UHGV virus genome: UHGV-1662509 | Reading direction: 5' to 3' (one strand) | Origin: a virus | DNA length: 18,450 bases | Shown here: positions 12,001-15,000 of the stretch, one piece after another | Layout: every line of letters begins with the position of its first letter | How positions within the stretch are numbered: the stretch's first letter is position 1 | Made by a program: the position numbers

Positions 12001-15000
12001 GCCAGGTGTTTTAGCACCGCCACTTCCTCCGCTACCGCCAGCCTTATACATCGCATATGCACCTACCGCACCCAAACCAGCGCCAACAAGAGAGGCTCGC
12101 CCCTGCTGTTTCGTAAACGCAGCCTGTGCGTCCGATTTAGCTTTTGCCAGACTGCTGTCTGCCAGCGAGTTAAAACTCTGTAACGCATCCGCCTTTTGAC
12201 CAGAACCGAGAGCAGCAACATCCTGTAGCCCGGCAACATACTTATCTGCCTGCGATACCTGCCCCCGTGTGGTTGTGTCAATCTGCCCGGTTACCTGATC
12301 ACTCTGGTTCGCATTCATTACCGCGTTAAAGCGACCACTGGACGGGTCAACACCGGACTGAGCAAGATTACCCGCCAGCTCCTTCCGTGCTTCGCCAAAC
12401 TGTTTCTGATACCCCAGATTTGTGGTGCCAGCAATATTGTCGTACTGCTGCTCACTGTTCAGGTCATCGACCTTTTCCATGAAGTTATCTTCAGCCGGGC
12501 GGAGGATTTTTTGATAATCCTGCCACCCTTTCCAGGCCACTTCTTCCTGTGCTATTTGCGCTGCTGTTGGTTTTACTTTGGTATCACCACCGCCTTTTTT
12601 TCCGCCCATTATGGCCCCCTGGATAACAAAAAACCCTGCCGGGGCAGGGTCAGAATGTGAATTGCAATTGGTTTACACACGATAATGAATACAGTGGCAG
12701 TCAGACCGCTATCCTGAACACCATGAAGCCATCCTCATCATCCGGCATTCGCTCAAAGCCCAGACGTTTTCCCAGCCGGATAAATCCCCGTCTTGCCGTA
12801 TGGAATTCAGCCCAGCGTCCGCCAGCCAGACGGGTTAATGTCTTCACCTCCGGCAGATAACGCTCAACGCTGTTACTCCCCGTACACACGCCCAGCAACA
12901 CCAGAACATAAGGGATACCGTCGTCACTGAGCACAGCACGCAGCACCAGAAAACCATCCGGTGCCTCAAAGCAAAACGCCTGCTTTTTAAGGCAGGCGTC
13001 TTTAACTTCATTCATAAATTCAGGGTTGCGGGAATTTCTCACAACACGCTGCATATACCGGAGAATTTTGTCGTCCATTCTCTCACCAGAAACGGGTGCC
13101 ATATCGGCTGAACCTCAGCAACCAGTTGACGGGGACTTTCGTCCCCGTCGCGGTTTTCCTACTGCTTACACTGTAAGAACGCCGCAAACTCCGCTCCCCA
13201 CAAATTCAGCCGGAACTCACACAACGAGCCGTGTAACATCCAGATGGTGAAGATTACCGTCATACAAATTGTGACGGTGATGAGCGATTTTTGCGACATA
13301 GCGCTTGCCTCCTGAGTGGAGAGGCGCTAACCTTCTACTTGCTTAAGGTATGATGGTTAGGGCCTCGGGTTAAACAAAATGTTTGACTCGGGGCCTTTCC
13401 ACATCAGGCCTTCAGGTTCACCTTCCAGCCATCAGCCGAAAGGCACCCGTGCATAATCTACGATTTTTGCCCTGCACGGGCAACAAAAAACCCGCCATCA
13501 CAGCGGGTTATGACATGTTGTCGGGTATTACTCAGAATTTCAGGCCAATGCCTGCAAATAAACCATCAGTTTTCCAGTCGCCAGAGCCTGAGCTTTCATA
13601 AGTGACGTCCATAGTAACACTTTCATTGAAGTTAAATTGCGCGCCGACAGACCATGCAATAGACGTTTTTTTGGTGCTGTTACTTTCAGAAAAACTACCT
13701 ACACCACCATTAAGATTGTCGTTAACTTTCAAATCATAAGTTACTTTTGCAACCGCAACACCTGCCATTGAATACACACTGAGGTATTCATTAAACCGCC
13801 ACGAAGGACCGGATAGTAGACTCCAGTAATTAGCCCTGATATCAGTTCTCGCTGAAGCTGCCGGTTTTTTTACCTCTCGTGATGGATCGGAAGGCTTAAC
13901 ATCAATGAATGCCTGTGCATTAGTCATGGATCGAGCCCATGCAAAAGAGGTTATAACACCGATCTCATCCGTAATCTCATAACGATACTTAATGTTCATT
14001 CCCAAGGGACTTTTCTCTTTACCATCATGGCCCCGGACAAACGCATCGTCATATTCTCCAGGTGAATTGAAATAGTTTTCATTCACAAAATTGTTAAAGG
14101 TATCAAGGTTATGAAGACTTAAATCCTTAACAAAATTATTCAGCCCGGATAACTGAAGGTGAGCGAATCCAAGGGATACGGTACTATCACCAGATGCAGC
14201 ATGTGCCTGTGCAGTTAATCCACCTAAGCCCAGAGTTGCGCACACAAGAAATTTTGTGATACTTTTCATTTTAAGAATCTTCCTATATTAAAAACATTGT
14301 TCTCTCTGTCCTTTCCACATTTTTGATTATTTACCATCCTGCCTGGAAATAAAAAATAAAAATTTTTCTTAAAATGATTGATAAATTTTATTGTGCTAAT
14401 CATACATTGAAGTATTAATAACAAGAACTTTGTCTACATAAGACTTTCGAATATCCCATGTTGCACCACCTGAATAATGCTCACAGGAATATATTTTATT
14501 TCCTGTAGCGCCAGTGGATGTGGTATAAATCGGTCGGTCATAAGGAGTTCTTTTCCAGTTATAATACCCGACCAGTGCAGGCATAATTGCGCATGGATAT
14601 CCAAGGTCCTTTTCAAATTTGATATCAACAGGTATTAACTTCGCGTCAAGCAGCATCATTTCGCCATGGTAAATCATCTCACCCAACGGATTATACATGG
14701 CGATACCATACTCAGAAGGTTGAGTAACCATATTCGCAAAAGCATAAACAGTCGTAACACCAGGATTCGTTCCCCTGACAATTTGATGAAGCCTTAAGGC
14801 ATGATATCCATCAATCTGTTCATGCGTGTACATGACATCGGCCTTCTTCTCTGTTCTGATAAAGAAAAAACAACTTTTTCCTGACGGAATTGACGTTTTA
14901 AAAAAAGCCTTCTCAGTCGCCGGAATAGTTCCCTTATTGATAAGACACTGAGGCGTAAACCCCGGGCTTATCCACAAGCTGCCATCTGGTTTCGTAATGC

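Follow-up and report, generated by a model that had tools for sequence, protein, structure and literature searches.

Late transcription in lambdoid phages depends on a Q-modified, terminator-resistant polymerase, and the terminator tR' of phage lambda is located at the very start of the late operon, just past the late promoter and the Q-loading site. An open reading frame (ORF) of lambda, orf-64, runs across this tR'/6S RNA terminator, through which the Q-modified polymerase passes. The phage protein AcrVA5 carries a canonical R-Q-G-I-G motif, is encoded in anti-CRISPR loci and targets a defence protein of the host. It is a mini-GNAT of ~92 residues that acetylates Cas12a (PDB 6iuf). RimI-like GNAT domains were furthermore described inside the polyvalent proteins of gammaproteobacterial prophages and as solo copies among late genes (Iyer, Burroughs, Anand, de Souza and Aravind 2017, PMC5512222), and the GNATs of polyvalent proteins were proposed to modify proteins and to be packaged and injected (PMC5512222). 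A different class of genes, the morons, is represented by lambda lom and bor and by hokW-sokW of Sp5 and is marked by variable presence, atypical composition and autonomous transcription. Here we have analyzed a gene of 133 annotated codons in the viral genome UHGV-1662509, the whole 18,450-nucleotide (nt) stretch of which is referred to as the window. Its product is predicted to adopt a minimal GNAT fold, and a short segment of its codons also encodes a conserved RNA hairpin. On the whole we consider it rather probable that this is a core late gene whose GNAT-fold product may transfer acyl groups to ejection cargo, with a terminator or attenuator embedded in the coding sequence.

The window covers the late region of a short-tailed phage of the Shiga toxin type (Sepvirinae; similar to 933W, Sp5 and phi24B), in which the minus strand carries all late genes. 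The gene was called as ORF 12701..13102 on that strand, with the ATG at 13102 and a TGA stop at 12701, and has a GC content of 52.2%. It corresponds to ORF75/ECs1237 of Sp5 (133 amino acids, adjoining the 218-residue ORF76), to vb_24B_43 of phi24B and to L0129 of 933W, and is designated ORF75 in the following. In its own direction it is preceded by lom and a Hok/Gef toxin gene and followed by genes of 218, 150, 83, 421 and 2783 codons, ORF76 to ORF80. Positions 12400-13500 match 196 phage records; in 185 of these the match extends over at least 80% of the segment. The top chromosomal match of this segment is an E. coli O10:H32 prophage at 99.8%. Of 5426 complete E. coli genomes, 420 contain the gene, always under the annotation 'hypothetical protein'. 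Among the E. coli and Shigella phage records matching the protein, a count that takes in only such records and not relatives without the gene, 186 of 188 do so with at least 95% protein identity, and all 188 cover at least 80%. In the literature we found no functional study of ECs1237, vb_24B_43, L0129 or phrog_610, the mentions being a comparative genomic hybridization microarray study and studies on Sp5 and phi24B.

For comparison we used 14 loci from prophages of seven other genera (Yersinia, Pectobacterium, Salmonella, Citrobacter, Symbiopectobacterium, Brenneria and Serratia) and added five distant metagenomic contexts, with members that are ~20-33% identical to the window protein. In all 19 contexts the gene is present at the same position, directly upstream of the ORF76-80 cassette; note that locus L024 spans 1 kb and shows only the first cassette gene. 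The order ORF70-ORF71-variable stretch of 1-2 kb-ORF75-ORF76-ORF77-ORF78-ORF79-ORF80, sometimes with an insert between the last two, is found in 14 of 14 loci. In the distant contexts, the nozzle and needle genes are followed by one or two small genes, the GNAT-like gene, genes of the size of ORF76-79 (~190-250, 127-167, 78-188 and 386-481 codons) and finally the gene for a polyvalent protein of 2300-3300 residues. The stop codon of the gene usually overlaps the next start in these distant loci, and in L005, L019, L020, L022, L023 and L024 the gene and the ORF76 homologue overlap or adjoin each other at their start and stop codons. In Pectobacterium, 2 nt separate the gene from the preceding stop codon and 8 nt from the following ORF76 homologue. 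Judged by protein identity across the 14 loci, which is 44-70% as against 40-58% for ORF76 and 28-33% for ORF79, purifying selection on the gene is at least as strong as on its neighbours. A profile search of 1.84 billion representative proteins retrieved 216 clusters at 50% identity, nearly all of them stand-alone proteins of 115-160 amino acids. One member from a metagenomic phage, P0099 (L022, 8001-8771), is called from a TTG start as a protein of 256 amino acids, in which an N-terminal extension of 130 residues with a weak DUF4376 match precedes the GNAT-like domain. Since an internal ATG would yield a protein of 132 amino acids, the call is either a fusion or an annotation artefact.

The GC content of the gene matches that of the conserved block downstream, ORF76-80, at 50-55%, as opposed to 41.7% for lom, 40.5% for ORF73 and 40.8% for ORF72. 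Outside E. coli, lom was found in Salmonella only, with hok and lom in reversed order; in Citrobacter the hok gene lies elsewhere in the variable stretch, and Yersinia, Pectobacterium, Brenneria and Serratia have neither. On the grounds of synteny and GC content we assign lom, hokW-sokW and ORF72/73 as the accessory inserts at this site, with ORF75 as the first constant gene past the hotspot. By the same comparisons, ORF75 is a conserved core late gene of the Sepvirinae/GP4-like short-tailed temperate phages and not a moron. As to the hotspot itself, the stretch between ORF71 and ORF75 holds unrelated genes in other genera, ORF72 and ORF73 (14396-15300) together with lom have ~41% GC versus ~51-55% for the flanking core genes, and a Citrobacter braakii prophage carries a different Hok-family gene of 50 amino acids in its variable region (L008, 7118-7270).

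The hairpin falls on codons 35-46 (DACLKKQAFCFE), where the family has its most conserved peptide motif. In the sense strand, a 5' arm ACGCCUGC (12999..12992) and a 3' arm GCAGGCGU (12983..12976) enclose an 8-nt loop (12991..12984) and are followed by the tail UUUGCUUUG, extending to 12967. The element was flagged by a terminator scan and by a weak Rfam match to the terminator part of GlmZ. In the window it has an 8-bp stem followed by UUUUGCUUUG, while other lineages show stems of 9-11 bp and a U6 tract. Across loci with no more than 44-70% protein identity, the sequence CGCCTGCC(T/G)TAAAAAGCAGGCGTTTTGCTTTG is almost invariant. When the codons of 13 diverged loci are aligned, synonymous codons reach a pairwise identity of 1.00 at nine of the 11 codons 35-45 and of 0.85 at A42; for C44 the value among Cys-Cys pairs is 1.00. 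K39, K40 and C44 each have a single sequence that deviates from the majority codon. At most other codons the value is ~0.2-0.5, even for the invariant residues V53, G94, R96, R104 and G115.

A wider sample was drawn from IMG/VR by means of a degenerate DNA pattern, obtained by back-translation of AFLF-x4-GF.[VI]L.P and blind to the hairpin bases. The family hidden Markov model accepted 64 of the 72 matches, which yielded 48 unique 60-nt regions and, with the earlier loci, 66 unique sequences; for family member P0050 no related loci were found in viral contigs. In 51 of the 66, a hairpin is present in the same codon register, with at least 9 of 11 pairs and a U-rich tail (typically UUUUUUGUUUG). 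The peptide varies by lineage (KACSNEW, KALSSGR, DALLDER, SALLECR) and the pairing is kept. Synonymous double changes preserve the stem (GCC..AGG to GCU..AGA, AAA..GCU to AAG..GCC), residue 41 alternates among Gln, Arg and Trp, the codons of which (CAG, CGG, UGG) always pair with CUGC, and G.U pairs occur that fit only the sense RNA. From these three features we infer selection at the level of the RNA.

An alignment of 50 sequences that includes hairpin-less ones allowed for a quantitative comparison. Pairing was observed in 77.6% of the cells, as against 64.9 +/- 1.2% in shuffled alignments (0 of 500 reaching the observed value) and at most 56.7% when the pairing pattern was slid, and the covariation score was 0.398 versus 0.207 (0 of 500) and at most 0.179, respectively, where due to the relatedness of the sequences the shuffled control overstates significance and the slid control is the fairer one. 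Seven of the 11 pairs have changed on both sides. Besides this relatedness, two further observations speak against the RNA element. The hairpin is missing from 15 of the 66 sequences; in its favour, however, the lineages without it have mostly lost the U-tract as well (UUC CUC codons). In addition, resampling of synonymous codons gave an expectation of 6.7 of 11 pairs compared to 8.5 observed, with 27 of 50 sequences at p <= 0.05, so that much of the pairing is set by the choice of amino acids and the remainder by synonymous sites.

With its GC-rich stem, a U-rich tract, covariation and constrained synonymous sites, the hairpin looks like an intrinsic terminator or attenuator. We propose that it would act as an intragenic Rho-independent element on the late transcript, past the accessory hotspot and ahead of the ejection/polyvalent cassette, where it would stop any polymerase that lacks the late antiterminator modification or is not closely followed by a ribosome. 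Polymerase arriving from moron promoters or spurious starts would thus be blocked, and the cassette genes would stay silent in the lysogen. As a lesser possibility, the element may lower the expression of low-copy cargo genes relative to that of the tail genes. The arrangement resembles that of lambda tR' and orf-64 in that a Rho-independent terminator lies within an ORF of a lambdoid late unit, presumably to be passed only by antiterminated polymerase. Unlike tR', it is situated ~20 kb into the late region and inside a conserved protein motif, and is kept by codon co-variation across lineages. The dual-coding terminator-like hairpin is a variant of established elements, namely intragenic terminators and lambda tR', and in the literature consulted we came across no description of it.

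The literature also yielded no termination or 3'-end data for this hairpin, which counts against a role in termination. A serious, though less probable, alternative is that the hairpin is real without being a terminator, and that it serves as an mRNA-stabilising 3' hairpin or an RNase processing boundary, by which the tail-gene message would outlive the message downstream, or as a translational pause site. Conservation and covariation reveal structure in the sense RNA and say nothing of its function, the UUUUUUG that follows the stem in several lineages could act on ribosomes, and the E. coli form, with its 8-nt loop and interrupted U-tract, is weaker than a textbook terminator. Most lineages nevertheless do show the textbook form, consisting of an A-tract, a GC-rich stem of 9-11 bp, a tetraloop and U6, and hairpin and U-tract are mostly either both retained or both missing, in favour of a terminator or attenuator. 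Programmed -1 frameshifting on U UUU UUG was considered as a general explanation and rejected, as this heptamer is missing from the Enterobacterales form and the U-run follows the hairpin instead of preceding it.

The structure of the protein was predicted with high confidence as a minimal GNAT fold with the topology alpha1-alpha2-beta2-beta3-beta4-alpha3-beta5-alpha4-beta6-beta7, without beta1. The model shows the mixed alpha/beta architecture and the V-shaped cleft between beta4 and beta5 that are characteristic of GNATs. The loop between beta4 and alpha3 that would correspond to motif A reads C73-T-G-S-N-S78 in the window protein, with a family consensus of S-x-[GS]-G-[DN]-[AGS] in which the last small residue is at the start of alpha3; it is shorter than in GNATs, with compatible spacing. 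The most conserved polar residues are S/C73, Y82, R91, E99, T/S102, R104, K/R105 and R109, to which the glycines G106 and G115 can be added. By topology, the conserved polar positions map to the C-terminal ends of beta4 and beta5 and to the first residues of alpha3 and alpha4, a region that we infer to be the cofactor-binding and catalytic cleft of a GNAT.

In spite of the predicted fold, a series of observations argues against an active GNAT. Pfam gave no family for the window protein at E values up to 1 and none for 126 family members at E values up to 0.01, NCBIfam gave no match for the window protein, and no GNAT was found in the PDB either by sequence or by family profile. Alignment of the family profile with E. 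coli RimI by hhalign returned a probability below 1%, or 0.6% with a RimI profile of 22 sequences, which is shallow, as the homologues gathered were all more than 80% identical. The Q/R-x-x-G-x-G/A signature is not present as such, with the Q/R absent and the central glycine found in about one quarter of the members, the tyrosine that usually acts as the general acid in alpha4 of GNATs is absent, and the conserved residues are placed in the cleft by topology. Because of the degenerate motif A and the missing tyrosine, catalysis is uncertain, and a non-catalytic GNAT-fold chaperone would fit the same context. With no profile match and an ambiguous motif A we refer to these proteins as a divergent minimal GNAT-fold family and refrain from assigning them to any named GNAT family.

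The sequence-only reading had recognised no family and had noted a faint likeness to GNATs. The former still holds for Pfam, NCBIfam and PADLOC, the last of which returned no family for the window protein at E values up to 1, but has to be amended in that the product falls into PHROG 610 ('unknown function') with an E value of 1.6e-69. The latter gained support from the structure prediction, although sequence and profile searches provided no link to any GNAT. To the small N-terminal acetyltransferases RimI, Ard1/Naa10, Naa20, Naa40 and Naa50 there is no detectable sequence relationship, and in comparison to RimI-type GNATs the family has no beta1, a shorter beta4-alpha3 loop, and neither the Q/R-x-x-G-x-G/A signature nor the tyrosine in alpha4. 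It differs from AcrVA5 in the degenerate motif and in being fixed in a late structural operon. With the GNATs described in PMC5512222 it shares the association of a GNAT module with a giant polyvalent protein and late structural genes. Unlike those, it is not recognisable by sequence, has a gene of its own, five genes ahead of that for the polyvalent protein, and is missing from the virion entries listed for phi24B.

Two published data sets bear on the role of the protein. In the part of the phi24B virion proteome considered here, ORF80 (gp47), ORF79 (gp48), ORF78, ORF77 (gp50), ORF76 (gp51), ORF73 (gp54) and traces of Lom were detected (preprint of 2026, doi 10.64898/2026.04.10.717836), and the giant protein gp47, for which polyvalent domains were reported, was proposed to be an ejection protein (doi 10.64898/2026.04.10.717836). 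For vb_24B_43 (45981-46382), the phi24B supplement entries listed include none with its end at 46379 or 46382, and the four tryptic peptides looked for are all missing from them. With its five downstream neighbours packaged and ORF75 not found among these entries, the product appears to act in the producing cell. Among in-frame deletions of unknown genes in Sp5, nine were essential, including those of ORF79 and ORF80, and the ORF64 and ORF76 mutants were severely impaired (Mondal et al. 2016, PMC5155283), the ORF76 deletion strongly lowering Sp5 infectivity (PMC5155283). The deletion of ORF75 was among neither the essential nor the impaired mutants, and plaques and lysogens were still formed on K-12 (PMC5155283). 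The sequence-only reading had named homology to a routine structural protein as an outcome that would overturn it. No sign of this was seen, the protein being missing from the listed phi24B virion entries and its deletion from Sp5 being tolerated.

On this basis we tentatively propose, as the likeliest of several possibilities though itself less likely than not, a minimal GNAT that binds acyl-CoA (CoA, coenzyme A) and modifies ejection cargo prior to packaging. The protein would be an acyl-CoA-dependent acyltransferase, or at least a CoA-binding GNAT, that works in the producing cell and acylates the co-expressed ejection proteins before these are packaged. Its likeliest target would be ORF76, the product of the coupled gene, with a Gly/Lys-rich N-terminus that is a plausible acceptor at its alpha- or epsilon-amines. 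This N-terminus is conserved (12571-12609, minus strand; MGGKKGGGDTKVK here, with the N-terminal peptide GGKKGGGDTKVK) and reads MGKGGG(G)S..VKET in Yersinia, Salmonella, Citrobacter and Pectobacterium and MGGGDTSVKET or MSKGNTSIKET in distant members. The motif M-G-(G/K)-(K)-G-G-G-x-x-x-V/I-K-E-T is located at L003 8631, L005 8384, L006 8395, L008 8427, L023 8390 and L024 514. The homologues of ORF77 and ORF78 mostly start with Met-Gly, so that the N-termini of ORF76, and also of ORF77 and ORF78, are possible acyl acceptor sites.

The same data sets also hold points that are unfavourable to this proposal. The primers used for the deletion of Sp5 ORF75 map to 13094-13113 and 12692-12712 of the window, such that 13093..12713 was removed, that is the protein from codon 4 onward together with the hairpin, and no obvious phenotype resulted in K-12, a point that bears on the role of the hairpin as well. 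Among the modifications listed for the phi24B proteome, N-terminal +42 occurs on keratins only and lysine acetylation does not appear; note that the proteome database consists of stop-to-stop frames, due to which N-terminal acetylation of phage proteins is undetectable. The phi24B entries used to place ORF75 outside the virion are likewise a partial list.

A catalytically dead GNAT-fold scaffold that acts as an assembly or packaging chaperone, keeping ORF76 or other proteins soluble and handing them to the procapsid, is in our view rather unlikely, but it would account for the degenerate motif A, the missing tyrosine in alpha4 and the lack of any Pfam GNAT match in 126 members. Translational coupling to ORF76 and the absence of the protein from the listed virion entries, with its neighbours packaged, are in line with such a role, and the deletion is tolerated as it is for many accessory chaperones. 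It is less well reconciled with the topology, by which E99, T/S102, R104, K/R105, R109, S/C73 and Y82 would cluster at the predicted CoA-binding and catalytic site and not on an obvious outer surface, and with the model, in which the GNAT core is complete, beta4/beta5 region included, at high confidence. Still more doubtful is an active GNAT with a target outside the phage, be it a host protein, an aminoacyl-tRNA or a small molecule, for which AcrVA5, the TacT/AtaT toxins and the GNAT domains within polyvalent proteins are precedents. As the product of a late-operon gene that was not found among the listed virion entries, the protein would not be on hand early in infection, at the time that counter-defence is required. 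PADLOC gave no match, and the fixed position and the coupling to ORF76 across distant lineages contrast with the usual fast turnover of counter-defence genes. The most specific form of our proposal, in which a dedicated GNAT, conserved across a large lineage of podophages with the Shiga toxin phages among them, acylates the Gly/Lys-rich N-terminal tails of ejection proteins before packaging and a translation- or antitermination-gated terminator within the codons of its most conserved motif silences the cassette in lysogens, is speculative and would have to be called improbable in all its parts taken together.

The sequence-only reading had placed the gene as an isolated insertion, insulated by terminators between the hok-like locus and the operon, of the kind that provides superinfection exclusion, abortive infection or anti-defence functions. 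Its description of a single gene with ~52% GC and a terminator behind it was accurate: a canonical intrinsic terminator with a stem at 12651..12632 followed by TTTTTTGTTATC (GACCCTGCCCCGGCAGGGTT followed by TTTTGTTATC, with UUUUUUGUUAUC behind the stem on the strand of the gene) is located 3' of the gene. A homologous terminator directly follows the ORF75 homologue in the C. braakii prophage (L008, 8385-8404), and the element thus travels with the gene in the closest relatives; it is absent from the loci where the two genes are coupled (L005, L006, L019-L024). The hok-like 3' hairpin upstream of the gene is likewise present and very stable (~13128..13149, -28.5 kcal/mol, z = -4.4, with none of 200 shuffled sequences folding equally well), but is no terminator in the direction of the gene. 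Its tail on the strand of the gene is AACUGGUUGC, without a U-tract, and it is terminator-like on the opposite strand only, which identifies it as the 3' stem-loop of the hok transcript. To call the gene isolated is misleading, with a GC content like that of the conserved downstream block, and sense-strand terminators are not peculiar to it, others being found after lom (13509..13489), between the genes of 421 and 2783 codons (9935..9916) and inside the gene itself. The terminator in the 68-nt gap between ORF79 and ORF80 is a strong one (ACCCGGTCATTGTGCCGGGT followed by TTTTTTATGG; 9916-9935, minus strand).

The E. coli version does adjoin genes of the type of lambda lom and Sp5 hokW-sokW and is followed by a terminator, and in E. 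coli and Citrobacter, with a strong terminator behind a non-essential gene and accessory genes in front of it, a moron serving the lysogen is a natural first impression. It is nevertheless very improbable. Morons vary in presence and composition and are transcribed autonomously, whereas this gene is constant, at the same position in all 19 contexts, of core-like GC content, without a match in PADLOC, coupled to both neighbours in Pectobacterium and without a detectable promoter of its own, as a scan of the minus strand upstream of the gene, limited to consensus matches, found no sigma-70-like promoter. Furthermore, its internal terminator-like element would abort transcripts entering from upstream.

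An origin of the frozen codons in the overlapping 55-codon ORF, which starts at 13011 and covers the block, or in a recombination boundary, near which the block lies at the border of variable and conserved modules, is hardly credible and was rejected, as the constraint spans only 11 codons with free synonymous sites in the rest of the overlap, and as both arms change with preservation of pairing, including the sense-only G.U pairs, which neither alternative predicts. The 55-codon ORF itself (12844..13011, minus strand, other frame) is probably not a gene, and beyond the hairpin the synonymous sites of the main frame vary freely. The features discussed here are summarised in Table 1.

Table 1. 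Features of the window around ORF75; positions are those of the whole stretch.
Feature	Position	Strand	Evidence or assignment
Probable true coding sequence from Met9, 125 amino acids	12701..13078	-	predicted minimal GNAT-fold protein, PHROG 610
N-terminal extension MAPVSGER, 8 codons, probably untranslated leader	13079..13102	-	homologue comparison, pLDDT
Intragenic hairpin with U-rich tract, terminator- or attenuator-like	12967..12999	-	terminator scan, weak Rfam match, covariation
Intrinsic terminator, canonical, in 91-nt spacer ahead of ORF76 (218 amino acids)	12622..12651	-	terminator scan and folding
hokW mRNA 3' stem-loop	13120..13155	-	folding; no U-tract on gene strand
hokW toxin gene, 46 amino acids, hokW-sokW type I toxin-antitoxin locus	13159..13299	-	Pfam HOK_GEF, PHROG 251
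lom (Ail/Lom outer-membrane protein), terminator 13509..13489	13532..14269	-	Pfam Ail_Lom 3.9e-30
Cassette ORF76 (218 amino acids)-ORF77 (150)-ORF78 (83, glycine-zipper)-ORF79 (421)-ORF80 (2783, polyvalent)	1547..12609	-	synteny, phi24B proteome

Two internal methionine residues are found within the N-terminal part of the annotated protein. The sequence-only reading had considered the start as ambiguous between the annotated ATG and an internal methionine at residue 8; such an internal methionine does exist, but it is residue 9, with its ATG at 13078, and a third methionine is residue 17. Homologues from outside E. coli have 119-125 amino acids, begin at or near Met9 and lack the extension of eight residues, and the PHROG 610 profile aligns with residues 9-133. 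The extension, MAPVSGER, shows three substitutions in its eight residues with respect to P0004, a relative that is 89% identical overall, and has a predicted local distance difference test (pLDDT) score below 50. Met9 is preceded by GGTGAGAGA, whereas the GAGG upstream of the ATG at 13102 is 10 nt away and lies within a small predicted hairpin. By virtue of the lengths of the homologues, the span of the PHROG alignment, the divergence and low pLDDT of the extension and the upstream GGTGAGAGA, Met9 is the likelier start. Versions of 117 amino acids at NCBI begin at Met17, a start that we rejected since helix alpha1 and the conservation among homologues begin before this residue.

Further observations concern the cassette and its surroundings. 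Homologues of the giant protein carry LPD, MuF_C and other polyvalent domains, and these domains are swapped between phages: LPD5/LPD1/MuF_C/LPD38 are present in some, ART-PolyVal in Pectobacterium, and InPase with RadC or ddrB-ParB with InPase in distant phages. The five small genes ahead of the giant gene remain constant despite these swaps (L003, L005, L006, L019, L020, L023). The ORF73 product (gp54 of phi24B) is encoded by an AT-rich hotspot gene, yet was detected in the portion of the virion proteome considered. Beyond the end of the giant gene, an ORF of 303 amino acids on the opposite strand (234-1145, plus strand) had no PADLOC match.

The hokW-sokW locus was characterised in Sp5 (PMC8621323). 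In the window, hokW matches Pfam HOK_GEF at 4e-08, above the cut-off, and PHROG 251, and sok was matched by an Rfam model at 13288-13448 (minus strand) with an E value of 1.6e-7, below the gathering score. The 'microRNA-size' RNA 24B_1 of phi24B (HM208303, 45711-45692) maps antisense to the hok leader, with its site at ~13300-13450 on the plus strand of the window, equivalent to 6908-7010 in L002. The promoter proposed for 24B_1 (-35 TTGACT, -10 within CGCTAACCT) overlaps the 5' end of the hok coding sequence and is directed into the hok leader. The geometry corresponds to that of a Sok antitoxin RNA, and SokW is therefore the probable identity of the '80-nt precursor' described for 24B_1. Neither of the two papers on 24B_1 mentions hok/sok, and the hokW-sokW paper (PMC8621323) does not mention 24B_1.

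Short-tailed phages of this type are the main vehicles of Shiga toxin, and most of their late genes are still annotated as 'hypothetical'. For L0129/ECs1237, the present analysis provides a predicted fold, a fixed functional neighbourhood and a biochemical hypothesis, that of a GNAT acting on ejection cargo. It further reveals a dual-coding segment, in which a hairpin and a U-tract are conserved by codon co-variation inside a protein motif across distant phages. For annotation this calls for caution, as the peptide motif 'AC..K.AF(C/L)F' is partly shaped by constraints on the RNA. If the hairpin is a terminator, it would constitute a control point for transcription into the ejection/polyvalent cassette and would indicate how prophages may insulate harmful late genes from moron promoters.

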